Shown here one piece after another: positions 8,901-52,199 of a stretch of DNA of 52,199 bases. The DNA comes from a virus. Taxonomy: Duplodnaviria > Caudoviricetes. The DNA lies in the IMG/VR virus record IMGVR_UViG_3300030059_002282, positions 1 through 52,199 of that record, one strand, 5' to 3'. The position numbers were made by a program, and so were the translations under genes. The notes beneath the pieces were generated by a model. It was not told the DNA's origin, made no database searches, and was given only the letters and a program-made list of their open reading frames with translations. Numbering within the stretch: position 1 is the first letter of the stretch; each line of letters starts with the position of its first letter.

Positions 8901-11900
8901 GGCATCGCTTGCAGAACCATCTCATAGTTCATGCGTGAGTCAGTCTCAACACCGTCTATGTCCGTGGTCTTCTTACCGGCCAAAAGGAGCATTAATTTAT
9001 AAGCGGGAGTATTTGACAGCCGTTCAATTTCTTCCTCAATGATAGGTGCTTTTTCTGCCTCCCACTCCTGGGTTTGTCGAGCGGCCAGTTCTTTCATCAG
9101 CTTAGTCTGCACCGTTTCGGTTGCTCGATTTATGACTCGCTCTTGCTCTAGCTGGTAGTCCTCCCAAGCTGCATCACTCATACCTGACTGATCAATGCTG
9201 GCGAACAAACCACCATACGCATCGGTGGTTGACGCCTCCAATATCGCTGCATCTGTGGCTAACATACTGTCGAACACTTGTTTAATTTCGTCGGTCAATT
9301 CGACATCAATTTCACTGTTGATATAATTGTATATTTTCTTCAGCCACGAACTGAAAAATGAAAAAGCGTCACGCAGTTCAACCGAGGGTGCTTTACCCTC
9401 ACGCATATAGTTCTCAAACGCACGGGACAGTTTCTCGTGCATCTCCACACCTTCAGGCGTAACAGCGGTGATCTGGCCGAGTTCCGTAGCACCGACAAAT
9501 CTCATCATCGCTTCATGGTGTGGCATGACACCAAATTCTTCAGCAAGCTGCTTTTCAAGTTCAACGAACAGGTGCATCGCTTCATGGACGAAGGTTGACA
9601 TGTTGGACGATTCAGTCAGCTTAATGACTCTCGATCCGTCCGGCATGATAATCATCTGACCTTGATCTTCCTGCGTCAGTGTCTGACGTTCGGCAAACTT
9701 GGCTTTCACATCATCAGTAATATCGATGACCCATTTGCCTGCTTCTGGTTTCTGGCTTTCAAACTGTCGCTTGTAATTGCCAATGTAGAACCTGACTTCA
9801 AGACCTTCAGCTGCTGCTTCTTTCAATCTATCATCAAGTGTCCTCTCGCGCATCTCGGCAACCATCTCGTCCTGTGTTATTTCACCGGCCTCAAGTCGTT
9901 CACCCATTTCTTCGGTCATGTCATCCATCGTTGTTGACCCAGGTGACAACATGACTGGTACACCATCCGGTATAACCAGTGATCCATCGTTGTTGACCCG
10001 TTCAGTGAATACGCCAGTGCCCCTACCGATGATTGATCGGGCATTTCCTTCGTCCATGCTCCACTCTTTACGAATGGCATCGAGTGTCTTAGTTTCATTT
10101 ATCGGACTGCCGTCAAGCTGAACATGACGGGCTTTCTGACCGGTCAGCTTCTTGACCATTGAAGGCATCTTCTGATCGTACTGTGCCCTGTAGTCATTGG
10201 CGGGTGACCAAATACCTTGAAGCGTTGTGTTGTCATTCCAAGCGAACGTGTCCGATCCGTTTTTAATGGCTTCACGGATCGCATACTTCAGAAGAAGGTT
10301 GATCCAGTTACTACCCTTATACGGTTGGTTAGGCACACCGAACTGTTCTGCGGCCAGCTGATTACTCAGTGCATCGTATTCAATTACCAGTTCTCTCAGA
10401 TCATCGAGCAACTTCTGATCGGCTTCCAATCTACCTCGCACACCAGTCGTTATGTCACCAGTCGGGTCGGCATCTCTAATGTGGTTCCAAGCAATCTCAA
10501 GGAACGCTTTCTTGTGATTATTATTATATGTTTGAGGATGCACGTCGTAAAACGGACCACCTTCATCAATCAATTCTTGTCTATGTTCAGCGGTGTCTGT
10601 TCTACTCATTGACGAATACAACCCCTCACCAACAGATGTCCATAATAGGATGTCAGGACTAAACGCAGTGGTGTTTGACTCGATTAGATCAAGAGCTTCT
10701 TCAGCGGTGTATTCTCTCAACGGGTCTGGTTGCACATAGACACTATCTAATAGTTGTTCAACCTGACCATAGATCAGTGCACGTTCCTCTTTGATGTCGT
10801 TGACGTTGGCACCACTTTGGTAACCCTCACCTTTTCGAGCTTTGGTGTCGATGTCAGATTGTCCTTCTTCCATCCGTGTTTCATTGTTAGGTCGGTCGGT
10901 CATGCGGGCGAAAGCGATGATGTCTTGTTCATCGCCAAAGTGGAGAGTGTTTGTGAAACTGCCCTGCATTGCTGGGAACTTCAGCTTGAGTTCGCGGTAA
11001 TTTTCAGAATCACCATCTGCGATGTACTCCGGCCATCGTGCTTGATTTTCAGTCGGCGCAGCTGGACCACCTTCACCAATGATAGTGCCGTAATCTCTTG
11101 CACCTTCTTCAGCTTCAATTTGTGCTTCACTGAGACTGTACGCACTATCTGATCCGACATCACGACCGGCGACAGTGACTGAATAACCGATGTCGTCATT
11201 ACCGTGGATGGTCACATCATCATCAGTGTTCTGTGCGCGGTAAGTTCGATATGGTTCTTCCATGTACTCTCGTTCAGCTTCTTCCTTAGCTTCCCGCTCA
11301 GCCTCATCACGAGCGGCTGGGGCGATCACATCCAAACCGACATGCTCAACGACTCCAGCCCAGTCCTCATTGGCGATCAAGTCTCTCAGCGTAACGTCGA
11401 AGTCCTCGTTCTGTCGGGTGGTTGTGGTGGTGTCTTGTCGTCGGAGAAAGACAACACCGTCGTCATTACTCAGCGAAGTCATTGCTCTCTCAACTACACC
11501 TTCAGCTTCTTCACGAGTTGGAAAGGTTCGTTCTTGGGCTGTCTGAATTCGCTCACCGTCTGATGCCCAAAATTGTGTGACCTTGAACTCACCATCTACT
11601 TCAGTGATGTCAACTCTGATTTCTTGGTCACCCTTGTCTTCTTTAGTGCTGTCTTCAATCGTTTCTTCCAGCCGATCAGTGAGTATATCGTTGTCTAGGT
11701 TGTCTGCTACCCATTTGTCAAAGTCAAACCACGGCGCTCCCTCAGTGGGGTCACGGTCATATTCATACATCCAATCGTCCACACGGTGGGTCCAGTTTTC
11801 AGAGTCGCCATCGATATGACCACTATCCCATTGGATACTCTCCCATTGAGGGTCTTCATCACTATCGACATCACGACCTGCCCTCGTCATTGTGACCACA

Positions 11901-31267: not shown

Positions 31268-31656
31268 GTGCCTCTCCTTTTAGCGAAGTGTGGGCCGTCG
31301 AAATTCTTCCAGAAGCCGCCCCATTTGATTTGGATGCCTAACTGACCTGCCGCCTTGAACATTGCCTTGGCCAGCAGCTTGTAGTGTTCTGGATCGTGAG
31401 ATGTTTCACCGTCAACCCAAGGATATAGGTCCACGGCCAATACACCAGAACCATCAGGGTCTTCTTCCAGATGATCACTGTCCATTGTCCAGCTGACACC
31501 ATTGGTGATGTTAGCGCGTTGCATTTCTTCAGTGCGCTTTGTCTCAATGACCGAGAAGTCGATCTCAGTTAACTCAAAGGCCCGCATGACCAATCTGATG
31601 ATGTCGTCACACCCGCCGTTGAGGTTTGCGCGGGATGCTTTTCCTGGTAAATACAT
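31264..31656 (-). CDS. Endolysin, peptidase M15 (L-Ala-D-Glu endopeptidase-like)
   Basis: RTEEMQ, SDH, AVDL, IKWGGFW...DGPHF zinc-peptidase motifs. Confidence 0.88.
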   Translation of the reverse strand: MYLPGKASRANLNGGCDDIIRLVMRAFELTEIDFSVIETKRTEEMQRANITNGVSWTMDSDHLEEDPDGSGVLAVDLYPWVDGETSHDPEHYKLLAKAMFKAAGQLGIQIKWGGFWKNFDGPHFAKRRGT

Positions 31657-33065
31657 TACGCATACCTCTTTGATTTACCGTAGCTGGATGCACTACGCGG
31701 TCGCTTGAGGATCGTTGGTGGAGTCCAAGGCTTTTCTCGATCCTTCTTGGTAATTCCTGGGAACAACTCAGTTAAAGCCCACACCACGGCATCAGCACGG
31801 TCGGGGGAATTCAAGCCCTGATACCCTGATGTGGTGAACGATTGCATCTGATCCTCAATCTCGGGGAATTGCCCGATATGATGGACCAGACCACGCTCGT
31901 ACAACTGGCTGATCGGCTCGGCCCGAACGATTTTGCCGCGCGAGGCATGAACCAGTCCGACCGGTAAATTTGGATTCTCGGCTTCGAGCGTTGATTGGAC
32001 CATCGCCCCACCGTAGTTTTGTTCAGCAACAATCTTATCGGCTTGGTGCCGGTGGAATGCACTGTTGGTAATGCGAGCCCAGTCCCGTGGACCGAACCGG
32101 CCCGACAGGTCTTCAATCAAATAACCATGACCGTCAGTGCCTAGTCCCACAACCGCAATACCCACTTCATCCGATCTAAAGTCCTCGGGACCGCTGCAAC
32201 CACTCGGGTCAACGGCAATTACCACACGGACAAAATTAGGCAGCACATGGCCCTGATTGATGCGTTGTTGATCCAGCAGTTCTTCGGTCCATAGCGACCC
32301 ATCTGAGTCGTCAGCGAACAGGCCGTAAAGAAATCGTTTCTTCGCCTTGGGTGGTAGTTCCTCAAGGATTTTAATGTACTCAGGCGAGAGGTTTGCTTTG
32401 TTACCACCTGGGTTCATCATCATGTAGGCCAGATTGAACTCATCATCAACAGGCTGGTGTGTTTGGGGGTCTTGCTTCTCAACGAATTGTTGAAATGTCC
32501 AATGGCGTTTGGATGGTGGGTTGAAGTCGTAATAGCATTTCAAACCCAAGTCTCTGGCCGGTGCATCCGGTCCGCCTAATGTTTTGATCTTTTGCGCCAG
32601 TCGGGTTTTAGCCAGTGTGACTGATCCCCACGGTATCTGACTGCACTCATTGAAATAGATCGTGCAAAATTCCTGACCGAGAATTTTCTCCACCCGTTCC
32701 TTGTCGTCCAATCCACTAAACCAAATCTGTGATCCGTTGGCGAACTCATAATACAAGTTGGGTGTTTTGTGCCAGCCTCGTGGATCGTAGAAGCCTTTGG
32801 GGAAGCACAGGTCCATGACCTTGGGGAAGGTATCCTCAACCACGGCAGCTACCAGACTGTTCTGCCGGAACCTGAATACCACATGCCTCGATCCTGGGGC
32901 CAGTTGTGCTCGCATGATGACCGCTCGCATTAACCAGAAAGTCTTACCGGATCGAGCACCACCGCCTAGAGCGCAGTGAGTAGCGCGAGAAGTGAGTATG
33001 TCCTGCGCTTTCACCTGATCAGGTGTAGCCTCAAATGCTGGTGTGTTTGGGTCACTCCATGCCAT
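31656..33065 (-). CDS. terL: Terminase large subunit
   Basis: Walker A GGARSGKT, Walker B-like IYFNE, FNPP, RNase H-like IAVDPS, PDRADA. Confidence 0.92.
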   Translation of the reverse strand: MAWSDPNTPAFEATPDQVKAQDILTSRATHCALGGGARSGKTFWLMRAVIMRAQLAPGSRHVVFRFRQNSLVAAVVEDTFPKVMDLCFPKGFYDPRGWHKTPNLYYEFANGSQIWFSGLDDKERVEKILGQEFCTIYFNECSQIPWGSVTLAKTRLAQKIKTLGGPDAPARDLGLKCYYDFNPPSKRHWTFQQFVEKQDPQTHQPVDDEFNLAYMMMNPGGNKANLSPEYIKILEELPPKAKKRFLYGLFADDSDGSLWTEELLDQQRINQGHVLPNFVRVVIAVDPSGCSGPEDFRSDEVGIAVVGLGTDGHGYLIEDLSGRFGPRDWARITNSAFHRHQADKIVAEQNYGGAMVQSTLEAENPNLPVGLVHASRGKIVRAEPISQLYERGLVHHIGQFPEIEDQMQSFTTSGYQGLNSPDRADAVVWALTELFPGITKKDREKPWTPPTILKRPRSASSYGKSKRYA

Positions 33066-33613
33066 TAGCCAGCCCAACCTAAGGGGTACATTCTACCTTT
33101 GTACTGGATGAACGTTCTAGTGGCCAGAACCTTGCGTCTTGGCTCTAGCTCAACATTAGTCAGCACATCATGGACAACCTGCTGCTCGGTGACCGCATCG
33201 GCCCACACTGTCTCACCAGCTACTGGAATCACAACACGAGGTAGGTTTGCGATATACGACGCCTTTACATCAGCATCAAATACAATGCCGCAGAATGTTT
33301 TTACTCTGTCGGATTCGGTTGAGTAGTCCTGTAATGGGTCGATTGAATACGTACAGTGGTTTGACCGTTCGACCAGCTTGATGTCATCGCCTGTCACTGT
33401 GCAATCGTTACAACTGACCGTCACCGTTAGTTCATCAAATGATAGTTCTTCAATGCGCTCATCAACCCGGGTGTAACTGATGTCATGTCGATATGTAAAC
33501 GCTTTAGCAATCAGCGAACCGTTAACGCATGAGGTTTTATCTGGATGCCCTGAGTTAATGTTAGCGCCATCGCTGCAAATTACCGTGTTATCTTCTAACA
33601 GGTTGATTATCAT
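33065..33613 (-). CDS. Hypothetical protein
   Basis: Likely start MIINLL; stop overlaps the TerL start. Confidence 0.65.
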   Translation of the reverse strand: MIINLLEDNTVICSDGANINSGHPDKTSCVNGSLIAKAFTYRHDISYTRVDERIEELSFDELTVTVSCNDCTVTGDDIKLVERSNHCTYSIDPLQDYSTESDRVKTFCGIVFDADVKASYIANLPRVVIPVAGETVWADAVTEQQVVHDVLTNVELEPRRKVLATRTFIQYKGRMYPLGWAG

Positions 33614-33615
33614 AA

Positions 33616-34110
33616 TTATGCTCCATTGCTCGTACCGGGCGTGATTCCAGCCCATACACCAGCGTTAGCGTTATACCGTAACGTGATCATGTCCAGCACG
33701 TTGTCAAGGGTAAAATTAGCGCCTAGTCTTATATTCCCCGACCCGCTACTGACTACGATTGATCGTGCGCTACTGACTGCGCTAAGCGTAACAATCGCAC
33801 CATCTACACCTCCGTTGATTGTTATAAGAGGATCGGACGATGCTGCCGCTTCTGTGTCTACCCTGTGGTAGCTGCCGGTGACAGTGATTGCCCCCGATGA
33901 AATTGTCAGGTCGCCTTGCGTTGGGAGCTTTAGAAAGCCAACTGTGCCGCTTGTTGTGATGCCGCCTAATGCTGTGATTTGACCACCAACAGCAAGGGTG
34001 CTAGACGTTGTGATAGATTTGGCCGTACCAGCACCCACCATTGCCTTAATGTCGGTGACGGCAGTATCTACCACCGCACCGGTATGCGTACTTTCATATG
34101 GATCAGCCAT
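33616..34110 (-). CDS. Virion-type fibre/decoration protein
   Basis: Ser/Thr/Gly-rich; LTISSGAITVTGSYHRVDTEAAASSD...INGG resembles tailspike C-terminal domains. Confidence 0.6.
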   Translation of the reverse strand: MADPYESTHTGAVVDTAVTDIKAMVGAGTAKSITTSSTLAVGGQITALGGITTSGTVGFLKLPTQGDLTISSGAITVTGSYHRVDTEAAASSDPLITINGGVDGAIVTLSAVSSARSIVVSSGSGNIRLGANFTLDNVLDMITLRYNANAGVWAGITPGTSNGA

Positions 34111-34113
34111 CGT

Positions 34114-34455
34114 CTATCCCCATTCCAATAAATTCACAGAGGTGTTGCTAATGCCACCCACACAGCTAATGGCAGTCACACCGCGCAAGTGACTAATCAA
34201 TCGTTCCTGACCAGCTGGTAAAAAAATTGAGGAACCGGTCGTTTGCTCGGTGGTAGGGGCGGCTGCTGTCGCATCAAACTCATACCAAATATCTTGGTCG
34301 GCCTGTATGCGAGCCACATTGGTGTCAGCTGTCAGGGTGATGGACTCAGCTGTCGTTGCTGTGCCTAAAAACAGAGTTTGGATCACAGCTTCAGATTCGT
34401 TGGGTGCGTGGACCTGACCATCTGGTGTGACGTAGGGTTTTAATAATTCAGTCAT
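34114..34455 (-). CDS. Putative small virion beta-sandwich protein
   Basis: VARIQADQDIWYEF...SIFLPAG pattern. Confidence 0.55.
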   Translation of the reverse strand: MTELLKPYVTPDGQVHAPNESEAVIQTLFLGTATTAESITLTADTNVARIQADQDIWYEFDATAAAPTTEQTTGSSIFLPAGQERLISHLRGVTAISCVGGISNTSVNLLEWG

Positions 34456-34571
34456 GATATTTTTTCCTGGGGTCGTTTTGACATGCGAGAAAGCTGTTGG
34501 GCGTGCGGATTGTATATAGCCGGCCGACGAAGGGTCGCGGGTCTGTCAGCGGGGGGTGGGGGGGTCATCAT
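34452..34571 (-). CDS. 39-aa Pro-rich mini-ORF (not in ORF track)
   Basis: MMTPPPPADRPATLRRPAIYNPHAQQLSRMSKRPQEKIS; ATGA overlaps at both ends. Confidence 0.4.
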   Translation of the reverse strand: MMTPPPPADRPATLRRPAIYNPHAQQLSRMSKRPQEKIS

Positions 34572-34726
34572 GCTGTCACCAGAAAACGCTGACCGCCTGA
34601 CGTGTAGAAATCCTGACCGCCTGACGCTATGAACTGTGATAGCACTCTGACGGTACGGACTGATGCCCTGTAATTCCGTCGGAGCCGTGTCTGTCGCTGT
34701 CTGTCCATGCGTCGTTGAGCCTTCAT
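34568..34726 (-). CDS. 52-aa Arg-rich protein (not in ORF track)
   Basis: MKAQRRMDRQRQTRLRRNY...FIASGGQDFYTSGGQRFLVTA; ATGA overlap with the TerS stop. Confidence 0.55.
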   Translation of the reverse strand: MKAQRRMDRQRQTRLRRNYRASVRTVRVLSQFIASGGQDFYTSGGQRFLVTA

Positions 34727-35106
34727 AGCAACGTATCCTTACCGATGATGTTGATGGTCACAGCCTCAAGCTCAACCACCTGTTTGTCCGTGTAACCCAT
34801 GTTCTTCAGCATGAATATAGGGCCTGCACCGTTGGATTTCATGGCTCTTTCGACGGTAGCTAGCTCAACTCTCAGCTTGGCTTTTTTTATCGTGCCAGCT
34901 AGAGATTTGTACACCTGCTCGTTGACCGACCCATCAGCTTTACGCTGATAGTCGTTGAGAGCGTCACGGCTCTGAAACCCAAGCCCATAAGCGAGTCCAG
35001 CCATTGTAGGCGGTGCTTCACGAGCAACACAGTCATCGAAGTAGAGGTCAATCATGACCTGCATCGTCTCTGGATCTTCATATAGTGGCTTTTTCATAGT
35101 CAACAA
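34723..35106 (-). CDS. terS: Terminase small subunit (P22 gp3-like DNA-packaging protein)
   Basis: IDLYF...PPTMAGLAYGLGFQSRDALNDY...IFMLKNMGYTDK. Confidence 0.8.
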   Translation of the reverse strand: MLTMKKPLYEDPETMQVMIDLYFDDCVAREAPPTMAGLAYGLGFQSRDALNDYQRKADGSVNEQVYKSLAGTIKKAKLRVELATVERAMKSNGAGPIFMLKNMGYTDKQVVELEAVTINIIGKDTLL

Positions 35107-35540
35107 TCCTATCAGAATGCCTAAATACCCCCAACACCCTCCACTTACCCTGCATATTCACAAATCGGTGGGTACTCCACACCATGCATTCTAACTACCT
35201 CTCAACCCTTCTTAACCCAATACCCTCAATAATATATATATCAGTATAATATACAGTAAGTGAGTGGGTGATAGCAGGCAGCGGCACACAGTGCTATCAC
35301 CCCCTGTTTTGTGCTGAGTATAGGAAATCGAAGGGTAGCCGGTTAAAAACGCTACAACCCGCATATTCAGGGGCCTCCAGACTACCCTGTAGTGGTGGGT
35401 ATATACAGGGTAAATCAGGGGTATTTGCTCCATATTCGCTTGCTATCATGCTTTTGCTTGCAATCAGCTATCAAGCAAGTGCTTGCAATCACCCCCCCTT
35501 GCATGCAATCATGCTCAACCCTGCTATCAAGGACCACCGC
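35107..35540. promoter_or_regulatory. Divergent late/early control region with inverted repeats and GCTATCA motifs; candidate origin or genome-end region
   Basis: Strand switch; AT tract 35228-35253; inverted repeats 35266-35276/35292-35302 and 35383-35391/35404-35412. Confidence 0.55.
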
Positions 35541-35542
35541 AC

Positions 35543-35674
35543 ATGGACCATTGCATCATTACAATAAATAACATGATCCACAAACATCGCACTAAACTCA
35601 TCATAGCCGCAGCACTGGGCGACATGTTCGTCATCACGGTAACCATTTGGGCAATCTGGAGCATTTGTATATGA
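35543..35674 (+). CDS. Small membrane peptide
   Basis: agga RBS before ATG 35543; hydrophobic C-terminus; ATGA overlap with the next gene. Confidence 0.45.
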   Translation: MDHCIITINNMIHKHRTKLIIAAALGDMFVITVTIWAIWSICI

Positions 35675-36384
35675 GCGGCAACCGTATCGAACCAAGAGTG
35701 TTAATAGGCTGTGAATTCAGACAGACCACCATGTCAGCATTCATGGATGCAGGCTTTGACACCTACAGCTGTGACATCCTCCCATGTGAAGGGCCATATC
35801 CCGACCGACACTTTCAATGTGATGTGCAGGGCGTGCTCACCGGGCAATGGGATTTGATCATACTGGCACACCCACCATGCACCAGACTCTGCAACAGTGG
35901 CGTCAGATGGCTCGACGGACCGCCTAAAAACCCACCGGCTGACAGCACACCTGAGCAAGCGGCAGCATGGCCGACACTGGACCACGAGTCCAAGAAAGCC
36001 ATCATGTGGCAGCACCTCGACCAAGGTGCTGAACTGTTCGGCTTATTTCTCAACGCTGACTGCCCATTCATCTGCATTGAGAACCCTGTCATGCACAAAC
36101 ACGCTAAGGCTCGCATTACCAACTATGTCGAGTTCTCCCAGTCCGTTCAGCCGTGGCAGTACGGGCACGATGAAACCAAGCGCACATGCTTCTGGCTCAA
36201 AGGCCTACCCAATCTCGTACCGGATGTGTCCATCAAGCCGGAGACAGTCAATAACCGCGTTCACTCACTCGGACCAAGCGCGGATCGGTGGAAGGAACGC
36301 AGCAAATTTTTCTCGGGCATTGCCAACGCAATGGTCAATCAATGGGGTCCGATTCTGGACCAATATCAGGAGCAACAAGCATGA
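35671..36384 (+). CDS. Putative C5-cytosine DNA methyltransferase (short phage type)
   Basis: VLIGCE, YSCDI, WDLIILAHPPCTRL, IENPV, QPWQYGH, KRTCFWLKGLP. Confidence 0.75.
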   Translation: MSGNRIEPRVLIGCEFRQTTMSAFMDAGFDTYSCDILPCEGPYPDRHFQCDVQGVLTGQWDLIILAHPPCTRLCNSGVRWLDGPPKNPPADSTPEQAAAWPTLDHESKKAIMWQHLDQGAELFGLFLNADCPFICIENPVMHKHAKARITNYVEFSQSVQPWQYGHDETKRTCFWLKGLPNLVPDVSIKPETVNNRVHSLGPSADRWKERSKFFSGIANAMVNQWGPILDQYQEQQA

Positions 36385-36671
36385 GCACATCAACTTCAGT
36401 ACGGCCAACCAGCCGTGGTGTGAGAATCTGGATCGAGGGCAAACAGCTCACCGAAGCAGGCTTCACCAAGGGCCAGCCATACACCCGCACCATCACCCAG
36501 TCCTACATCATCTTTGCCCTAAGCAATAGCGGCAAGCTCAAGGTGGCAGGCTCACCAGCCCGACCGATTATCGACTTCAGCGCAAAGCAAATTGAAGGCT
36601 TCCCACTGGGCACCCAGCTGCTGGTCACATACCAGCCCAACCTCATCACCATCGAGCGAGTAACCGTATGA
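36381..36671 (+). CDS. AbrB/SymE-like swapped-hairpin protein
   Basis: RIWIEGKQLTEAGF...G and a second PIIDF...V..QPNLITI half; start ATG 36381 after ggag. Confidence 0.55.
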   Translation: MSTSTSVRPTSRGVRIWIEGKQLTEAGFTKGQPYTRTITQSYIIFALSNSGKLKVAGSPARPIIDFSAKQIEGFPLGTQLLVTYQPNLITIERVTV

Positions 36672-36868
36672 AAATTATCCTGAATACATACGAAAACAAA
36701 GAGCGTGGTTTCGCTGTAAAAGTTATTACATGTAATAAGAAAATAGTAACAGCCGAAGACATAAGCACAGGGGAGACTGTAAAGTTTAACCGGAGTAAAT
36801 TCGAGTGGATGATTCGTAAAGGCATTTTTTTTGAAGTTGCCGAATCAGCATCGAGCGAAAACAGCTAA
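36668..36868 (+). CDS. Hypothetical protein (AT-rich)
   Basis: 66 aa, ATGA overlap. Confidence 0.65.
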   Translation: MKIILNTYENKERGFAVKVITCNKKIVTAEDISTGETVKFNRSKFEWMIRKGIFFEVAESASSENS

Positions 36869-36881
36869 TTCAAACTAAAAA

Positions 36882-37130
36882 ATGGTGAATCTTATGTCAG
36901 TAACAGTAACAGAAAACGGAACAGACAACGGTACTCGCTGGATCGAGCTTAGCGGCACTGATAGCGGCACCGGCATAGAGTTTGGTGGCGATGTTTTCGG
37001 GATTGATGGCCGGAGGGTACTGGATTGCGACGGATCGCCCCTAAACGATGGCGACCATGAAACAATCGCGGTAAAAAACTCGGTGCGAACGCCGCCCAAC
37101 CTCATCACTATCGAGAGAGCAACCGTATGA
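36882..37130 (+). CDS. Hypothetical protein
   Basis: 82 aa; ends in the duplicated PNLITIERATV. Confidence 0.6.
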   Translation: MVNLMSVTVTENGTDNGTRWIELSGTDSGTGIEFGGDVFGIDGRRVLDCDGSPLNDGDHETIAVKNSVRTPPNLITIERATV

Positions 37131-37179
37131 ACAAACAAGCCATAGCACTACAGCAAGTCCCACAGGAGTTACACCCACT

Positions 37180-37545
37180 ATGAAAATCAAAGGCATCACC
37201 AAGCAACAACTCACCGAGGTCATCAACCTGGGTGCAGACAATATAATTTTCAACCGCCACCCTGGGTGTGAAGGTAAATTTTTGCACTTCACGCTGCGCG
37301 TAACTGACTCGAAAGGACCGTTCGCCAAACAGTCAGCCACGGGCCGACGATCCACCAGCCTATGCTGGCACGGTCACAGGGACGTGATGGAGGCGATCTT
37401 TGACCTCAACCCTGATGCACTGCTCGTCACTGCAATGGCTCGCTACGAGGGCCGGAGCAGCTTCAACGAGCTGTTTGCCGACACCGGTATGACTAACGTC
37501 GGAATGGGTGTCAGCTATCAAGACTGCTGTGAGTGCGAGGATTAG
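37180..37545 (+). CDS. Hypothetical protein
   Basis: aggag RBS; CWHGH motif and C-terminal Cys cluster. Confidence 0.7.
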   Translation: MKIKGITKQQLTEVINLGADNIIFNRHPGCEGKFLHFTLRVTDSKGPFAKQSATGRRSTSLCWHGHRDVMEAIFDLNPDALLVTAMARYEGRSSFNELFADTGMTNVGMGVSYQDCCECED

Positions 37546-37579
37546 TAGACCACTGGACAGGATCACAATCGGAGAACGA

Positions 37580-37793
37580 CATGAACATCGACACGCCTAA
37601 CGGAATGCTCGCTGCCTGTGCATGGACGCAGGCATTAATTGACAATATGAAGGACGGTGGACGGTGGGCTATACCTCGCTCACGTTGCATTGTCACCTTC
37701 AACAAAAAGGACCACACTTTCACCATGACCGGCGAAGGTGTGGACACAGCAACCTGTAGAGTAATGGAGGCATTAGGATGGCAGGAATCATAA
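37580..37793 (+). CDS. Hypothetical protein
   Basis: Likely start MNIDTP near 37581 after ggaga. Confidence 0.6.
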
Positions 37794-38044
37794 GTGTGCG
37801 CGCAGAGATTTACGACTTCGGCCATGACATATATGGCAACCCCACGAGCCACTTCACGCTGTGGAGGGACGTCACAGTGATTCACCGCACCAAGCGAAGG
37901 GTGCAATGTGGATACGGCTCAGATCGGGCTGACGGGGCACTGTGGAAAGCCATCGCAGTCACCGCCCACGATCTAAAACTTATCAGCTTTGAGGGTGACC
38001 GATCCGCTGGTTTAATTACTGCAACTTTTGGAGTAAACAAATGA
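37778..38044 (+). CDS. Hypothetical protein
   Basis: ggagg RBS, operon continuity. Confidence 0.6.
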   Translation: MAGIISVRAEIYDFGHDIYGNPTSHFTLWRDVTVIHRTKRRVQCGYGSDRADGALWKAIAVTAHDLKLISFEGDRSAGLITATFGVNK

Positions 38045-38292
38045 TAGACGAACATCTAAACGCGAGCTTGTTGCTTGAAAGAATGGCCCGTGCACAACTG
38101 GAAGTAACCCAACTGACAAAAAAATTAACCCGATCTCTCGCTTTAGAGCGGCTGATTCCTAACGTTTTCCATGATGGCGCAATTAGTACTCACTGGACTG
38201 GTCAATTTGACCGAAGGGAATTAATCATCAAAAGGGGTAACGGAACGGTTCATGTAGTCAAATTTGATGATGTTCCATGGGAGTTACGATAA
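38041..38292 (+). CDS. Hypothetical protein
   Basis: ggag RBS, ATGA overlap. Confidence 0.6.
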   Translation: MIDEHLNASLLLERMARAQLEVTQLTKKLTRSLALERLIPNVFHDGAISTHWTGQFDRRELIIKRGNGTVHVVKFDDVPWELR

Positions 38293-38570
38293 TGAGTATA
38301 AAAGTGACAGATGCAAACGGTAACGTACTGGGCGATGGTGATTTTACCAAGGCCATGCTGCAATCATACGCCGATCTAAAGTGCACGGTGCTCACACTGA
38401 CCGACTCAACGACGGGTGATGTGACTGGGACCATTGAACCCAAGCGCAGGGCCGTTAACGCCTATGGGTTCGAACGAGTGCCTGCAATGGTGAGAGTGCA
38501 TCCCGACGACAAGCAATCGATCTACGATGCCGCCTTGATGCTTAACCAAATCAGAAAGGCGCAAAGCTAA
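38292..38570 (+). CDS. Hypothetical protein
   Basis: Likely start MSIKV at the TAATG overlap; last plus-strand early gene. Confidence 0.6.
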   Translation: MSIKVTDANGNVLGDGDFTKAMLQSYADLKCTVLTLTDSTTGDVTGTIEPKRRAVNAYGFERVPAMVRVHPDDKQSIYDAALMLNQIRKAQS

Positions 38571-38938
38571 ACCCAAAAGAAGAAGGGCCGGTCTGCTATA
38601 TCGCGGTCGGCCCAGTACTTCGCGTCGATCTCCATTACGTGAAGCTCATAAGATCGGCCCGCCTTGAGCCACTCATATAAATACTCAGCGTGAAAAAATA
38701 AGTAACTTAGCGCCAACCATTCTAGTGGAAGCCGGAGCACCCACACGGCGAACACCATTACCGGTATGGCTAGCGTCAGAATTTCCAACCACTGGATCAT
38801 GTGCACAGTCTCATGCTTGATCGTCAGATCGACGTGTGGCCCATCGCGGTACACGATGATGAACGGGAAGAACCATGCAATGCCAACATTACCAAAAATT
38901 TTAAACGGTACTTTTATTACTGGGAATTTAAATTTCAT
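38567..38938 (-). CDS. Membrane-associated HExxH zincin-like protein
   Basis: IKHETVHMIQ...MEIDA plus a hydrophobic segment. Confidence 0.6.
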   Translation of the reverse strand: MKFKFPVIKVPFKIFGNVGIAWFFPFIIVYRDGPHVDLTIKHETVHMIQWLEILTLAIPVMVFAVWVLRLPLEWLALSYLFFHAEYLYEWLKAGRSYELHVMEIDAKYWADRDIADRPFFFWV

Positions 38939-39261
38939 TATCCACTCCTTGGTGTTTCCATCATGCCTTGATACTGACGCTCTTGGTCAATGGTCCAGCT
39001 GTTTGGATCGGTCAGGTGATGGTCACAACCAAGCACTGAGCCTTTCCGGTGAGGGAACGGTATCGCGTAACAATTACACCGTTCCTGGGTTTCTAATTCA
39101 CGACGACGTTGACCCTCACAGCTGTGCACATTGGCGCAGCAGATCGGACACTCAATCATATCAAGCCGGAGGGGTTTACGCTTCGAAGTAAAGCGGTGAC
39201 GGCACTTGCTAGAATTGCATCGCACCCTGTGCCGGTATCTCGTGTTGCCACTGCCAGCCAT
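38938..39261 (-). CDS. Cys/His-rich Zn-binding protein
   Basis: CNSSKC, CPIC, CNC...PH.KGS..C. Confidence 0.6.
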   Translation of the reverse strand: MAGSGNTRYRHRVRCNSSKCRHRFTSKRKPLRLDMIECPICCANVHSCEGQRRRELETQERCNCYAIPFPHRKGSVLGCDHHLTDPNSWTIDQERQYQGMMETPRSG

Positions 39262-39710
39262 TATCCATCACTCCCTTTATCTGCTTTGTATATGTCTAGA
39301 TCAGCACCAGCACTACGGTAGCCTTCATCAAATGATTCGTAGTGATCGTAATCACCTTCAAGATGTTCGATTCGTTTCTCTAGAATCTTTATTTGTGCAG
39401 GGTTTTTGTTCAACTGCTCCCGCATAGCATCACGCTCATCGGTTAAACGCCTAACTTCTGCATCGTGAACTGGCGGTAAATGCATACACCACGAGGTGAA
39501 ACGCTCGTAAACGTCAGCGGGCACATTGTCAGCTCCAATCCGCAGATACTCGTCACCGTTGCTGTCGTAAAACACTGTGTCTCTGGAGGACCCTTCTATA
39601 ACCATGATCGGGGATTGGTTCAGTTCCTTTAGGTGTATTCCGTTAACCTCGTCACAATCCGAAACGCAGAAATCAGTCTTTGATCCGTGTTCTTTGCAGT
39701 AGTTACTCAT
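39261..39710 (-). CDS. Hypothetical accessory protein with coiled-coil C-terminus
   Basis: AEVRRLTDE...AMREQL; ends DKGSDG. Confidence 0.65.
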   Translation of the reverse strand: MSNYCKEHGSKTDFCVSDCDEVNGIHLKELNQSPIMVIEGSSRDTVFYDSNGDEYLRIGADNVPADVYERFTSWCMHLPPVHDAEVRRLTDERDAMREQLNKNPAQIKILEKRIEHLEGDYDHYESFDEGYRSAGADLDIYKADKGSDG

Positions 39711-39849
39711 AAACCCTTCCCTCAGATTTTAACCAATCATACATATATGATAATTCGTTTGCTTTTTCTTTATTTCCACAATTCCGTGCTTCACTGTATA
39801 AAGCATCTAGTAGTGCAAGTATTTTCTTTTTAGCTATTTTCTCTGTCAT
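39703..39849 (-). CDS. 48-aa hypothetical protein (not in ORF track)
   Basis: MTEKIAKKKILALLDALYSEA...EGRVYE; fills the gap in the operon. Confidence 0.5.
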   Translation of the reverse strand: MTEKIAKKKILALLDALYSEARNCGNKEKANELSYMYDWLKSEGRVYE

Positions 39850-40135
39850 TATCTTTACCCTTTAACTGCTCCTGCATCGCATTACATTTATTGGTTAAAC
39901 GCTGAACCTCTTTCTCAAGCTCGATCCGCGTATTCATTAGGCTGTCAGCGGATTCTATTAGCAGTGCATTCTCATCGGTTAAACGCTTAACCTCTGCCTC
40001 TAACGTTCTAGCGTCATCTGCTGCTTGCGCAATATGACAAGCCCTTTCGCCGTCCTGCTCTGTGTATCTAAATATGTCCAGCTTCTGAGAAACAGACGCC
40101 CCAAACAGATTTGTTTCTTTAGGTTCATTACTCAT
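39830..40135 (-). CDS. Coiled-coil accessory protein, partly paralogous to 39261-39710
   Basis: AEVKRLTDE, KEVQRLTNK, AMQEQL. Confidence 0.65.
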   Translation of the reverse strand: MSNEPKETNLFGASVSQKLDIFRYTEQDGERACHIAQAADDARTLEAEVKRLTDENALLIESADSLMNTRIELEKEVQRLTNKCNAMQEQLKGKDNDRENS

Positions 40136-40398
40136 ACATCACTCCCTTTATCCTGTGTGCGGGTGTTCCAATCCGAAACAGCTTCCGCTATTGCTCTATC
40201 GACATATTTCTGGCTGTACCGGAATGTTGTATTGCTCCACGAATCATCTTCTTGGCGCTCTTCAAGAGTCATAAGGTCGCAGATTTGTATAGACACATAG
40301 GCAAAACAGCACCCCAAATCATCGTAGCAAGTGCCAGCCTCATACTCGGGTACTTCTGGCGTATCACCACAAAACGGGCAAGGCTTTAATTCACTCAT
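40132..40398 (-). CDS. Lar-like restriction alleviation / Zn-finger protein
   Basis: MSELKPCPFCG...WNTR. Confidence 0.7.
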   Translation of the reverse strand: MSELKPCPFCGDTPEVPEYEAGTCYDDLGCCFAYVSIQICDLMTLEERQEDDSWSNTTFRYSQKYVDRAIAEAVSDWNTRTQDKGSDV

Positions 40399-40565
40399 AC
40401 ATCACTCCCTTTATCATTTGGTATGGGTATCCAACCATTTTGGCACTCTGTGTCTACCCTGTGGTAGCTGCCGGTGACAGTGATTGCCCCCGATGAAATT
40501 GTCAGGTCAATCTCACAGTCAGAGGCATGATCGAGTGGTGCTGCTGGCTTATCTCCGTTATTCAT
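40395..40565 (-). CDS. 56-aa chimeric mini-protein containing 21 aa of the 33616-34110 virion protein (not in ORF track)
   Basis: MNNGDKPAAPLDHASDCEI-DLTISSGAITVTGSYHRVDTE-CQNGWIPIPNDKGSDV; gggag RBS; ATGA overlap with the Lar-like gene. Confidence 0.6.
   Translation of the reverse strand: MNNGDKPAAPLDHASDCEIDLTISSGAITVTGSYHRVDTECQNGWIPIPNDKGSDV
40447..40508. repeat. 62-bp exact dispersed copy of 33851-33912
   Basis: tctgtgtctaccctgtggtagctgccggtgacagtgattgcccccgatgaaattgtcaggtc at both sites. Confidence 0.95.
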
Positions 40566-40653
40566 ACATTACTCCCTTTATCATTTGGTATGGGTATCCA
40601 ACCATTTTGGCACCCTGTGTTAATTCTACTTTCATAGTTCGCTCACCTTCGTG

Positions 40654-41799
40654 TTATGGCGCAACAGTAACCCTTGAGACTTCGCCCTTTAGCTTGTCAT
40701 AAGTTATAGCCCGCATTCCCCGCCTTGATACCCAACCGCCACGTGTCGCGTATGCGTCCCTTGGTGCGCCCGTGGGGTGCCGCTCAACAATAGCCCCGCC
40801 ACATTCCGCCATGTCTTGCTCGGTTTGGTGCAGGTGTCCTGTGTGAATGTAGCAATAGACCGCCTCGCCCCACATTGATCGGTATCTAGGTTCAGAAGCA
40901 AACAATTCTGGAAGCTGTTTATTCTTCTTTTTGTGGCCGTGGTGAAACGCAAGCATAATTTTACCGTGTAGGTAGGCGTAATAAGGAAAGGGCGTATCAT
41001 CAACCTCGACCCGAGGGTTGTTGCTAAATACTGTTTTCATGCACTTTCTAAGCCACACACTAGACGCTAGATCGTGATTCCCCTCACAGATCAGCAGCCG
41101 AACCTTTTTATGCTTTTCTAGCAGTCGTTGAGTTGAATTTATGCAAAGTGAAATCGCAATTTCAACAAGTTTATCGAATCGACTATCAGCGTCTAATACG
41201 TTTTGGTGCATGGGTGTTACCGCGTCGAGGCCATCCCAATGCAGGAAGTCTCCCTGTATATTCAGAATAGCAAGCTCGCTATCTGGTGATCCTACCGCCA
41301 TTTGACCCAAGGATTCGTTGAGCGTGTTCTGAGCTATCTTTAGATCCCAATCCTCGCCAGACTCTTTACCCCAGGAGAACATCCCAAGGTGATAGTCTGT
41401 GAAGGTGTAAAGTGTGCAGAGGTCTGCTATCACTTTCTTTGGGGCTTTTATCTTAGGCGCAACAGGTAAGCCCTTGGCTAGAACCGTTACCACCCGCTCC
41501 AGTGATTCGATTTGCTTTTGCTTGTCAACGTCCGTCTTGATCCAGCGCGAACCGCTTGCAGTCTTTTCGAGTGTTGATACGCCCTTGAGGTGGTAGCCCT
41601 CTGGGGCGCCCTCTGTGTGCATGTCAGGGTTTTTTCTAGCAGCCCTATGTTTGACCTTAGTTATCTGCTCACCAACCGTAGACTTCCCCTTGCCACACGC
41701 TCTAGCCGCCTCTGCCATATTGCAGCCATTAGCTAGGTATGCTTTTATGTAGGTGGTTTCCAGATCGGTCTCACAGTATTCAAGTAGCAAATTACTCAT
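40654..41799 (-). CDS. HTH plus calcineurin-like metallophosphoesterase
   Basis: N-terminal NMAEAARACGKGKSTV; DYHLG, GDFLH, GNHD, HHGH, GHLH. Confidence 0.85.
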   Translation of the reverse strand: MSNLLLEYCETDLETTYIKAYLANGCNMAEAARACGKGKSTVGEQITKVKHRAARKNPDMHTEGAPEGYHLKGVSTLEKTASGSRWIKTDVDKQKQIESLERVVTVLAKGLPVAPKIKAPKKVIADLCTLYTFTDYHLGMFSWGKESGEDWDLKIAQNTLNESLGQMAVGSPDSELAILNIQGDFLHWDGLDAVTPMHQNVLDADSRFDKLVEIAISLCINSTQRLLEKHKKVRLLICEGNHDLASSVWLRKCMKTVFSNNPRVEVDDTPFPYYAYLHGKIMLAFHHGHKKKNKQLPELFASEPRYRSMWGEAVYCYIHTGHLHQTEQDMAECGGAIVERHPTGAPRDAYATRGGWVSRRGMRAITYDKLKGEVSRVTVAP

Positions 41800-42149
41800 A
41801 TTCGTATTCCTATCGTCGCAAACTTCTCGCCTGTCTCGGTGTAGTGGTTCCAGTTACGCCGCAAGTCGTCAGGGTCGTATTCGCTCATTTTCTTGCCGTC
41901 CGTGCGCTTGTGAACGCTCATAATTGACTCGGCATTGATCGAAAAATGATCGTATTTGGAAATCCAACAACCGCAAGCGGTCGAACGGCCGTTATCGTAA
42001 ACCCACTGTTTAGGCTCTAGGTTGCATTTCGGGCAAACTTCCCAATCACCTTTGACCGCCTCGAATGCGTCAATACAATTCAAAAATGAGTGCGTTGGGT
42101 ATTCGTTGTACTTGGAGACATCACAATTCTTACCTTTACAGTCTCTCAT
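41796..42149 (-). CDS. Cys-rich hypothetical protein
   Basis: CPKC, CGC; strong RBS. Confidence 0.65.
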   Translation of the reverse strand: MRDCKGKNCDVSKYNEYPTHSFLNCIDAFEAVKGDWEVCPKCNLEPKQWVYDNGRSTACGCWISKYDHFSINAESIMSVHKRTDGKKMSEYDPDDLRRNWNHYTETGEKFATIGIRI

Positions 42150-42421: not shown

Positions 42422-42621
42422 TTACCCTCTCCCAATGCTGCATCCTTCGGTACTGCAATCAGCTTGCATTCCTGATCGCGTGAGAGTTCCGCTTCACACG
42501 CTTCGAGTAGTGGCCGGTACAGGTCTATTTGGTATTGGCGCGTCATCAGGCCGGTAAAAAAGCAGGAAAATAGAATCAGGTAGAGAGCTCCTTTCATGCT
42601 GAAATCGTTTCGGTTACTCAT
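42418..42621 (-). CDS. Small membrane-anchored protein
   Basis: N-terminal hydrophobic helix; ACEAELSRDQECKLIAVP. Confidence 0.65.
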   Translation of the reverse strand: MSNRNDFSMKGALYLILFSCFFTGLMTRQYQIDLYRPLLEACEAELSRDQECKLIAVPKDAALGEGK

Positions 42622-42633
42622 TTACCCTCTCCC
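42418..42633 (-). repeat. 16-bp gene-junction repeat tcatttaccctctccc (42418-42433 and 42618-42633)
   Basis: Identical copies 200 bp apart; encode GEGK-stop plus RBS and ATG. Confidence 0.85.
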
Positions 42634-42857
42634 TGTATCTCAGCGATGGCTTTTGCCAACATATCTTCTAGGGCGGTGATGCGGTCTAACGCTAACTGCA
42701 TATCGGTCTTAGGATCTTCACTGTCGTGCAGGTTAAGAATCCTGTTGCGCTTAACCTCTGCCCATTGTTCGTTTGATAAGTTCTTCATTACTCTATCACC
42801 TGCTGACATATCAATGCGTGCGGAGATGTGCTGTCCAATTCTCGTCCAAATGATCAT
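42618..42857 (-). CDS. 79-aa protein containing 13 aa identical to the tailspike
   Basis: ISARIDMSAGDRV shared with 3315-5900; aaggag RBS and ATGA overlap. Confidence 0.65.
   Translation of the reverse strand: MIIWTRIGQHISARIDMSAGDRVMKNLSNEQWAEVKRNRILNLHDSEDPKTDMQLALDRITALEDMLAKAIAEIQGEGK
42790..42827. repeat. 36/38-bp dispersed copy of tailspike 4987-5024
   Basis: actctatcacctgctgacatatcaatKcgtgcggaRat. Confidence 0.9.
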
Positions 42858-47494: not shown

Positions 47495-47725
47495 TTACTC
47501 CCTTTCAAATTCGTTAGGCACATCGGCCCAAATCAACGCGACTGCTCGATATTTGTCTATCAAGGCTTGGTGTTGTCGGCCATACCATGAGTCTGGGTTT
47601 GGCAATAATTCAAGGCTGTGCTGAAACTCGTAGATTCTTTGCTGATTTTCTTTTCTGTTGGCTCTTACGGTTACTCCGTACATGCTGATGGCAGTAGGGC
47701 CTGTAGCTTTATCTCCGTTATTCAT
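47495..47725 (-). CDS. Hypothetical protein
   Basis: MNNGDK start, ATGA overlap. Confidence 0.6.
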   Translation of the reverse strand: MNNGDKATGPTAISMYGVTVRANRKENQQRIYEFQHSLELLPNPDSWYGRQHQALIDKYRAVALIWADVPNEFERE

Positions 47726-49682: not shown

Positions 49683-49803
49683 CGTCAACAGAATCACCCC
49701 TTACTTCTTCTGGTGTCAGTCGAGTGCAGTGGCTGCATCGACTGTCATCGAATAAATATTCGCATTGTTTTTCGCATTGGTAGCAGATATAGGTGTTAGT
49801 CAA
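49672..49803 (-). CDS. 43-aa Zn-finger peptide (TTG start; not in ORF track)
   Basis: aggaga RBS, then MTNTYICYQCEKQCEYLFDDSRCSHCTRL... Confidence 0.55.
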   Translation of the reverse strand: MTNTYICYQCEKQCEYLFDDSRCSHCTRLTPEEVRGDSVDDDT

Positions 49804-49809
49804 TTGAAA

Positions 49810-49866
49810 TCTCCTGTTGACGGGATTGTCAATATACGGGTAGGATGCTCATCCGTCAACAGGAGA
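49810..49866. promoter_or_regulatory. Symmetric divergent promoter/operator with 14-bp perfect inverted repeat
   Basis: tctcctgttgacgg...ccgtcaacaggaga; TTGACG-N18-TAGGAT on +; internal TTGAC-N6-GTCAA. Confidence 0.7.
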
Positions 49867-49872
49867 ATAGAA

Positions 49873-50568
49873 ATGCCAACAATCAACATCACTATCACCC
49901 TCAACGACAATGAGTCGCTGGGTGACGCACTGGAGCAGATGCAATTAGTGCCCAACGATGTACAACAAGATATAACGGGTGCTGCGATTGAAACTCAAAC
50001 ATTACCAGCCGTGCCTGAACCAGCACCAGCACCAGCACCAGCACCAGCACCAGCACCAGCACCAGCACCAGCACCAGCCGTGCCTGAACCACTTGGTGAT
50101 AATGGTCCACCCGAACCGCCTGCTGATCTGGCTGCGTTCATTGCCGAGCCTACACTGGAAGTAACTGAAGGCGGTGAGGTTGTTGATCCCAATCTGGACG
50201 GTGATGGTCTGCCTTGGGATGAACGCATCCACAGTAGCAACGGCCTGAGAACTGGTAAGGGTGTATGGCAGAAGCGCCGGAATGTTGATCCAAGTATTCT
50301 TAAAGAAGTGGTTAATGAACTACTTGGTGTTGTTGCTGTACCTGCACCACCACCTGCACCAACCGGACCACCTGCACCAGCTGGGTCATGGGACTGGAAC
50401 ACACTGGTCAAAGCCTTGACGCAAGCCATCAAAGAGGGGCGCGTCACTAAAGTCACTCAGGATGAAGCGTTGAAAGAACTGGGTATTGATATTTTCCCAC
50501 TGCTGTCACCACGGACCGATCTGTACGATGCGTTCTGTGCAAAGCTGGGGCTTAATCATGACGCATAG
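49873..50568 (+). CDS. Pro/Ala-rich protein with PWDERIH motif
   Basis: Start ATG 49873 after aggaga; DGDGLPWDERIHSS...GVWQKRRNVD. Confidence 0.75.
   Translation: MPTINITITLNDNESLGDALEQMQLVPNDVQQDITGAAIETQTLPAVPEPAPAPAPAPAPAPAPAPAPAVPEPLGDNGPPEPPADLAAFIAEPTLEVTEGGEVVDPNLDGDGLPWDERIHSSNGLRTGKGVWQKRRNVDPSILKEVVNELLGVVAVPAPPPAPTGPPAPAGSWDWNTLVKALTQAIKEGRVTKVTQDEALKELGIDIFPLLSPRTDLYDAFCAKLGLNHDA
50020..50073 (+). repeat. Perfect (CCAGCA)9 coding microsatellite
   Basis: Encodes Pro-Ala repeats; flanked by duplicated accagccgtgcctgaacca (50004-50022, 50073-50091). Confidence 0.95.
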
Positions 50569-51763: not shown

Positions 51764-52199
51764 ATGACATTTATTAGCGAAAAGTTAGTGCAAATCAACA
51801 ACGTCGTCCTATCGTGGGACGGCTTGCGTAATCCTGAAACTCGCCAGTCGGGTTCAATCAACTACAACCTCGGTTTCCTCATGTCGCTTGCGGCACCTGA
51901 GTACGCTGAGTTGAAATCCATTGTGGATAACAAGCTGCAAACTGGAATTTTCCGTGGTGCATTTCCCGCCAATGGCAATCACCCGCTTGATGGTACAACT
52001 GCGAAACCTAAAGTTCCTCAGCCTGAAAAGTTTGGCCCCGAATATGCCAACCACATCAGCCTGAGTGCTGGTACGACTCGCGGTATCCCACCGATCATTG
52101 ATGCCAACCTTCAGCCGATGCAGCCGATGGTATTTAGCCCAATGCTTTACCCTGGGTGCATCGTCAATGTACTGGTTGACTGCTGGGACTATGACAACA
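51764..52199 (+). CDS. N-terminal part of ssDNA-binding protein (continues at 1-395)
   Basis: Open frame MTFISEKLVQINNVVLSWDGLRNPE... running to the contig end. Confidence 0.8.
   Translation, partial: MTFISEKLVQINNVVLSWDGLRNPETRQSGSINYNLGFLMSLAAPEYAELKSIVDNKLQTGIFRGAFPANGNHPLDGTTAKPKVPQPEKFGPEYANHISLSAGTTRGIPPIIDANLQPMQPMVFSPMLYPGCIVNVLVDCWDYDN
52101..52199. repeat. Terminal direct repeat copy 2
   Basis: Identical to 1-99. Confidence 0.95.

Follow-up and report, generated by a model that had tools for sequence, protein, structure and literature searches.

A small reading frame of phage DNA that carries an exact piece of the phage's own late gene can be understood as a gene in the making or as a by-product of recombination. 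The 56-aa mini-ORF at 40395-40565 raises this question. A sequence-only reading had proposed a recent gene birth from self-fragments, with a decoy or a recombination handle as the possible function.

The window analysed here is the whole stretch of 52,199 nucleotides. Its ends overlap by 99 nt (1-99 = 52101-52199) and the record type is a complete virus with direct terminal repeats: the window is the whole 52.1-kb genome of an uncultured marine podophage. The gene set includes DNA polymerase, primase, helicase, DNA-repair exonuclease, terminase, portal and major head protein, together with tail tubular proteins A and B, a virion-RNA-polymerase-like internal protein, an ORF of 2,808 aa and a fibre-like protein of 861 aa. 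The 2,808-aa ORF (5900-14326, minus strand) lies between the fibre-like gene and the internal virion protein genes. The runs containing the phage are marine metagenomes. A megablast search at near-identity with 39800-41000 against the GenBank phage collection gave no match, and the exonuclease reaches at best about 41% protein identity with cultured phages.

Two repeat regions elsewhere in the genome were also observed. Between 35442 and 35529, at the divergence of the minus-strand late genes from a methyltransferase block on the plus strand, a unit of about 25 nt stands three times in tandem (72-100% identity); these units may be operators or origin iterons. A run of GCACCA repeats occupies 50014-50079, in the region of the plus-strand ORF 49765-50568 (a PHROG without assigned function).

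Anatomy of the mini-ORF

The mini-ORF is located between the exonuclease gene and a Lar-like gene, in an interval of 243 nt that consists of fragments only, with no intact gene. Read 5' to 3' on the minus strand, its pieces A to F measure 17, 59, 17, 40, 62 and 59 nt. The features of the locus, and those elsewhere in the genome to which its pieces relate, are the following:

40654-41799, minus strand: DNA-repair exonuclease gene, 381 aa (PHROG 704, E=7.5e-109)
40558-40635, minus strand: debris ORF of 25 aa, fragment A joined out of frame to tail copy B (ORF reading)
40619-40635, minus strand: fragment A, 17-nt start of a small gene whose intact form is present in the relative L001 (comparison with L001 and L002)
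40562-40620, minus strand: tail copy B, the last 59 nt of a lost gene, with linker (direct repeat)
40395-40565, minus strand: chimeric mini-ORF, 56 aa (exact protein on four contigs, a cluster of one)
40549-40565, minus strand: fragment C, 17 nt equal to the start of ORF 47495-47725 (self-comparison)
40509-40548, minus strand: fragment D, 40 nt, origin not traced (window matches are chance-length words only)
40447-40508, minus strand: fragment E, exact 62-nt copy of 33851-33912 in the donor gene (repeat search, self-BLAST)
40395-40453, minus strand: tail copy F with linker, ending in an ATGA overlap with the Lar-like gene (direct repeat)
40132-40398, minus strand: Lar-like gene, 88 aa, translationally coupled downstream of the mini-ORF (profile matches)
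47495-47725, minus strand: early ORF with the same 17-nt start, 76 aa (sequence comparison)
33616-34110, minus strand: donor gene, 164 aa, second in the late operon and directly followed by the ORF that precedes terL
31656-33077: terminase large subunit (profile matches)

Fragment E and its source form an exact direct repeat (62/62 nt, self-BLAST E=1.9e-28) with copies 6.6 kb apart. The frame is the same in the donor gene and in the mini-ORF, and both encode the same 21 residues, donor residues 67-87; the sequence-only reading had described this match correctly. As DNA, the 62-nt piece forms an unremarkable hairpin (z=-1.69; 13 of 200 shuffles are as stable).

The two tail copies make up a second direct repeat, 40395-40453 against 40562-40620, with 2 mismatches in 59 nt. 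This repeat had been put at 52 bp at the 3' end of the mini-ORF: it is there, its full length is 59 nt, and the 52 nt are the part outside the microhomology, identical at 51 of 52 positions. Fragments F and E overlap by that microhomology, CTGTGT at 40448-40453, which was also noted before; it marks the tail/insert joint and occurs in the donor copy as well as in each tail copy. The view of the mini-ORF as a chimera built from fragments is upheld: one of them, E, reproduces a piece of a late gene of this phage exactly and meets the tail at a microhomology.

At its other end, the first 17 nt of the mini-ORF are identical to the start of gene 47495-47725, as had been reported, though with a self-BLAST E of 0.14. 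The match is weak on length, since three other 17-mers of the genome score equally, and notable in that ATG starts both copies. Immediately upstream, tail copy B lacks a start codon in its native frame. The 25-aa ORF that runs from fragment A into it ends in a TAA overlapping the start ATG of the mini-ORF; the exact 25-aa protein is absent from a collection of 15 billion proteins.

AAGGGAG precedes the mini-ORF ATG at 40565 by 6 nt, and the TGA of the mini-ORF overlaps the ATG of ORF 40132-40398 (ATGA). The ribosome-binding site and the translational coupling that had been pointed out are thus present, while the Lar identity of the coupled gene is weak: it matches PHROG 599 at E=4e-7, and Pfam PF14354 at 25.7 bits, below the cut-off of 28.6. 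The ORF is Lar-like only, and not a PF14354 member by gathering score.

The joints are real and inherited

Logan contigs (k=31) from four runs, X1, X3, X7 and X9, were compared with 39000-42000. In X1, a 60-nt unitig (40417-40476, depth 54.2) spans the tail/insert joint and a 122-nt unitig (40479-40600, depth 53.9) spans the insert/head joint and enters the upstream tail copy, next to flanking contigs of single-copy depth (60.9 and 50.3). Two shared unitigs have about twice the flank depth, 113.4 for the 62-nt repeat and 106.1 for a 43-nt core of the two tails, as expected of two-copy sequence. The length of a 6,551-nt X1 contig is exactly that of the window path 33883-40433, which fits the order of the window. 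X1 is possibly the source sample.

Run X3 belongs to a different study. There, a 321-nt contig (40157-40477) spans the tail/insert joint with a T>C difference at 40447, by which the joint matches the upstream tail copy and Glu becomes Gly. Bins over the unique head fragment have a depth of 11.8 in X3 and 49.8 in X7; contig cover in X9 ends at about 40420, and this run is uninformative on the mini-ORF upstream of there. A separate scaffold of 15.5 kb, L105, shows 100% identity throughout the 6,995 nt compared, the whole patchwork included. The four contigs that hold the exact mini-protein may be one record filed in several databases.

As contigs span the joints in runs of two studies and a second assembly record agrees, the mini-ORF is real DNA, and its joints are real and inherited. 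The confirmation by spanning sequence that the sequence-only reading had asked for has thereby largely been given in silico.

The exonuclease module ends at a breakpoint

L001 is the closest IMG/VR relative. Its blastn match pairs window 41811-40619 with L001 1778-2970 (93.9% over 1,193 nt), and the similarity is confined to this 1.19-kb module: the exonuclease gene with 12 nt upstream and about 35 nt downstream. Past the equivalent of 40619, L001 has an intact gene of 60 aa, and a second relative, L002, has its 70-aa counterpart. The window keeps 17 nt of the 60-aa gene, similarity stopping at 40619. The insert site is in this way a rearrangement or deletion breakpoint, at which the L001 homology ends and the next L001 gene is cut to 17 nt.

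Loose ends with L001-type flanks were recovered from both X3 and X7, precisely at 40619 and 41811; both arrangements therefore coexist in nature. This DNA-level comparison rests on L001 and L002, out of 80 exonuclease loci. Relatives of the Lar-like gene (19 loci, the best 47% identical) are too distant for a comparison of the site. It had been suggested that relatives might carry different self-fragments at this position: L001 and L002 carry instead an intact, unrelated gene, and no self-fragment.

The rest of L001 is an unrelated contig. An integrase-like ORF and a sequence like a tRNA 3' end stand beside its module, and by its sequence L001 looks temperate.

Searches for homologues

Among 5.8 billion proteins, no homologue of the mini-ORF was found beyond matches to the donor-derived piece. 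Within the size class of 30-98 aa the mini-protein retrieves only itself, and longer proteins give donor-piece matches only (14 with E<=10 among 29 candidates). Exact DNA patterns returned 0 matches in viral contigs for the tail and 0 for the head fragment (fragment D region). When metagenome records were scanned with a degenerate pattern covering codons 1-14 (C and the first 24 nt of D), L105 was the only one returned. An ancestral intact gene behind head or tail was not found by the protein, viral-contig and metagenome pattern searches.

These results do not favour the idea of a gene birth with a decoy or recombination-handle function: the homologues of the mini-ORF are donor-piece matches only, and it is unconserved outside its lineage. 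The sequence-only reading had named two refutations: an amplification chimera, or a one-off, untranslated and unconserved event, which would leave neutral debris only. The lack of conservation was indeed observed, but the mini-ORF is not a one-off amplification chimera.

The donor gene belongs to a large domain family

The donor had been called a virion gene and a fibre allele, a label that its profile matches do not bear out: the product of 33616-34110 has no direct match in Pfam or PHROG. Its domain of about 90 aa is found in 5,051 cluster representatives at E<=0.001 (full-library phmmer); among the 150 matches listed, it is present in 1-7 tandem copies in proteins of 118-1,573 aa. Five of the nine larger family members scanned match Pfam PF25692 (Phage_depo_C, beta-sandwich). 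One protein, P0076, is 53% identical to donor residues 62-163 and scores 26.7 bits with PF25692, against a cut-off of 25. One family member has tail-fibre PHROG matches in its other part. The AlphaFold model of the donor has a mean pLDDT of 61, is confident only for residues 90-160 and falls below 50 at residues 71-83. Foldseek found no match to it in the PDB at E<=0.001, and its leading rows, which are weak, come from chains of phage baseplates and tailspikes. From such sequence and model comparisons, a role at the virion surface is a reasonable inference.

We also observe that PF25692 covers the donor family partly: in P0076, the block corresponding to donor residues 68-87 is outside the matched part. 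The family is very large and, in the material seen here, largely unannotated.

Homology to the donor domain sets in abruptly, with coverage rising from 117 to 142 of the 147 phmmer matches between residues 66 and 68. This rise at residues 67-68 places the start of the copied piece at a domain boundary with exchangeable N-terminal parts, which is likely a break-prone boundary. Over the same 147 matches, the copied block is somewhat better conserved than the rest of the domain (mean top-residue fraction of 0.72 vs 0.61). This count replaces an alignment of 13 sequences that left out the family member P0018 and in which the 21-aa piece appeared as the most invariant motif (13 of 18 invariant columns); the latter was rejected, as its sequences had been retrieved with a bias, via words common to the piece.

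A stop-SD-start linker ends the small early genes

Both tail copies end in a short linker, GATAAAGGGAGTGATG. With up to one mismatch it occurs four times in the window, where 0.02 copies are expected (pattern search):

39266-39281, minus strand: linker
40137-40152, minus strand: linker
40400-40415, minus strand: linker
40567-40582, minus strand: linker, 1 mismatch

Each copy is the 3' end of a small early gene, whose product ends in ...DKGSD(V/G). At the junction, one frame reads TGA-TAA and a second the ATGA overlap, and the third meets its stop in the opening codons of the gene that follows. Relative to each following ATG, itself preceded by a strong SD, the stops of the three frames fall between about -17 and +8. 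Promoter-like sequences (9 vs 7.9 expected) and terminator-like ones (3 vs 4.3 expected) are not enriched.

The linker extends beyond this genome. In L084 (2661-4315) and L085 (2375-4029) it is placed at about 6 successive gene boundaries, lengthened to 36 nt at 94% identity, and the genes flanking it there have no DNA-level similarity to the window. Among 105 loci, these two are the only foreign matches; the three other matching loci are the window itself.

Of the 15 contig joints listed in X3, X7 and X9, 9 end within about 10 nt of the linkers at 40124-40157 or 40390-40422, although most of their sides are shorter than 35 nt, at a likeness threshold of 85%, and they may stem from other organisms. 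Read with these limits, they would indicate only that the linker borders different neighbours in related populations. The linker copies probably serve as short homologies for cassette exchange, concentrating breaks and joints.

With every frame closed at the linker ahead of the following start, debris between two linkers would do no harm. For the same reason, some ORF is expected between any two of them. A coupled ORF equipped with a ribosome-binding site is here no evidence of a new gene, because the linkers render any filling translatable.

A repeat of another kind is present nearby: 30 nt at 39435-39464, 39887-39916 and 39971-40000 (70-90% identity), inside ORFs 39261-39710 and 39830-40135. 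The two ORFs, which encode a common coiled-coil motif, are small early genes and paralogues of each other; in X3 and X7, contig joints lead from one copy of the repeat to another.

A second self-fragment in the early region

The mini-ORF is not the only early reading frame with a piece of a late gene. In the early ORF 42618-42857, positions 42790-42827 match 4987-5024 of the 861-aa fibre-like gene (3315-5900) at 36 of 38 nt (E=6e-10). Again the orientation is the same and the match is in frame in both genes, giving 13 identical residues. It lies within the first 23 codons of the ORF, directly before an internal ATG, and supplies an SD-like AGGTGA 8 nt upstream of this codon. The fragment is retained in a 62-aa database variant of the ORF product. 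No relatives were found of the fibre segment around this second fragment.

The two mismatches suggest an older event. With a second late-gene fragment in an early ORF, the copying process therefore recurs in this genome.

A probable scar at a mosaic boundary

We propose that the mini-ORF is probably a neutral recombination scar, left by a microhomology-mediated templated insertion at a mosaic boundary, in a plastic early region organised by the linker. The interval between the exonuclease and Lar-like genes is the edge of a horizontally exchanged module, reduced to fragments: a 17-nt remnant of the gene found behind the exonuclease in relatives, two 3' tails of a lost gene, a gene head of 57 nt and a filler of 62 nt. 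The filler would have been templated from the phage's own late gene and joined to the tail at CTGTGT, by template switching or by microhomology-mediated end joining, during replication or break repair. The whole could go back to a single complex event of serial switching or to a series of steps. Microhomology is seen at the tail/insert joint, the sole joint that can be assessed without the ancestral gene. Such a scar could survive because each small early gene ends in a linker with stops, an SD and an ATGA overlap: whatever lies between two linkers would be read as a short ORF, and the ribosomes passed to the next gene.

Some observations count against this explanation. Two in-frame self-fragments, both from putative virion-surface genes, have a chance of about 1 in 9, so that selection for the peptide keeps some probability. 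The mini-ORF persists with intact signals in populations of different studies. Finally, the starts of the two tail copies fall into one stretch of 6 nt (ACACAG), which would not be predicted from breaks made independently and at random. CACAGG forms the 5' part of the extended linker, both in L084 and at the end of the window's Lar-like gene; the shared start may be due to a hotspot, to mispairing with linkers or to one event of serial switching.

Alternative explanations

A functional early peptide is, in our estimate, improbable. Its 21 donor residues, the leading conserved block of a domain present in thousands of fibre- or spike-like phage proteins, would act as a decoy for host sensors, or would enter the donor-family proteins of co-infecting phages as a poison subunit. 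The intact SD and coupling speak for it, as do the in-frame position of the piece in a well-conserved block, the size of the donor family, the persistence of the ORF in two studies and the second in-frame fragment, taken from a fibre-like gene. Yet no homologous ORF was found, and L001 and L002 have none at the site; the 21 residues are a quarter of a beta-sandwich domain and poorly ordered in the donor monomer model; the sole variant seen alters a joint residue (Glu to Gly), and the adjoining 25-aa ORF is plainly debris. We likewise see little prospect for a recombination handle, in which the 62-nt repeat (and the 38-nt one) would be kept as homology for deletions, mini-circles or swaps of receptor-binding modules. 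The repeat has the exact identity, direct orientation and spacing for it, and begins at the domain-shuffling boundary of the donor family; a precedent is given by mini-circles that form between short repeated cassettes in T4-type phages (PMC2839356). Recombination between the direct repeats would however delete 6.6 kb, including the methyltransferase and many early genes, and the repeat is present in this lineage only. Recombinant forms at the 62-nt repeat are invisible to the k=31 contigs, the repeat being longer than k. There is, finally, a slim chance that the phage repeatedly copies in-frame pieces of late surface genes into early ORFs, for fibre poisoning or exclusion, blunting of sensors or programmed exchange.

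It is very unlikely that the patchwork is an assembly or amplification chimera without biological existence. The window is a metagenome assembly with a terminal overlap, the four contigs may amount to one record and X1 may be its source; but both joints have full single-copy depth in X1, one of them recurs with a point difference in X3, from another study, the head fragment has depth in X3 and X7, and L105 is identical over the 6,995 nt compared. Besides, a misjoin at a repeat would swap flanks rather than place 62 nt between unique sequences. Extremely unlikely is a self-copy made by a retroelement, as the template repeat of a diversity-generating retroelement (DGR), or a CRISPR-like mini-array with a self-spacer. 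Both are brought to mind by a short copy of part of a putative receptor-binding-type gene elsewhere in the genome, and by the layout of a 59-nt repeat, 108 nt and again a 59-nt repeat. A DGR has a reverse transcriptase nearby, template and variable repeats (TR and VR) that differ at adenines, and its VR in a variable C-terminal region. The complete 52-kb genome has 0 matches to PF00078 (reverse transcriptase), the 62/62 identity leaves no adenine-specific (A-to-N) differences, and the copied block is a conserved one, from the N-terminal part of a domain, set in an early ORF. Virus-borne mini-CRISPR arrays have short non-coding repeats around a spacer of typical size. Here, in contrast, the "repeats" of 59 nt are coding tails with the linker that ends other genes, and the 108-nt insert includes a start codon.

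Likeness to known systems

In the model of Hendrix and Hatfull, phage mosaicism arises by illegitimate recombination, and fragments remain at module joints. The locus agrees with it in the 1.19-kb module, 94% identical between otherwise unlike phages, in the joint 17 nt into the next gene and in the non-functional remnants at the module boundary. It departs from it in that the boundary is a patchwork of six pieces (17-62 nt), one of them a templated copy of sequence 6.6 kb distant, and is still arranged as translatable ORFs. Templated "filler" insertions at microhomology-mediated joints are known from MMBIR/FoSTeS and from alternative end joining. The exact self-copy at a breakpoint, the 6-nt microhomology and the chain of several short segments are like these, whereas microhomology is verified here at one joint. 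Homeologous recombination by phage recombinases (PMC2327257) is a related route.

Another comparison is offered by PeSL, the mobile regulatory cassettes of T4-type phages (Arbiol et al. 2010, PMC2839356; see also PMC4122927). PeSL consist of a promoter and terminator stem-loops, are repeated between small non-essential genes and are proposed mediators of modular shuffling (PMC2839356). Like them, the linker is a short conserved motif that recurs where small, non-homologous genes of a plastic region meet, and it is shared between phages. Unlike them, it is translational (stops, SD, overlapping start), lies inside a coding 3' end and is not a promoter with a terminator stem-loop, neither being enriched.

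Implications

The linker is maybe a more useful lead than the mini-ORF, as it is common to non-homologous genes and to at least one other phage lineage. It may be the translational counterpart of the transcriptional PeSL cassettes that are thought to drive cassette shuffling. If repeated copying of late genes were true, its cases would be the 62 nt from a Phage_depo_C-like gene and the 38 nt from the 861-aa fibre-like gene, and the active agent would be the early peptides, or else the sense RNA or the DNA homology. The two late-to-early self-copies and the linker are leads for a systematic survey.

For annotation, the locus is a warning that small ORFs with good signals in phage early regions can be debris. 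Read as a probable scar, the mini-ORF would offer a clean, base-resolved natural case of how phage mosaic boundaries arise and are tolerated.
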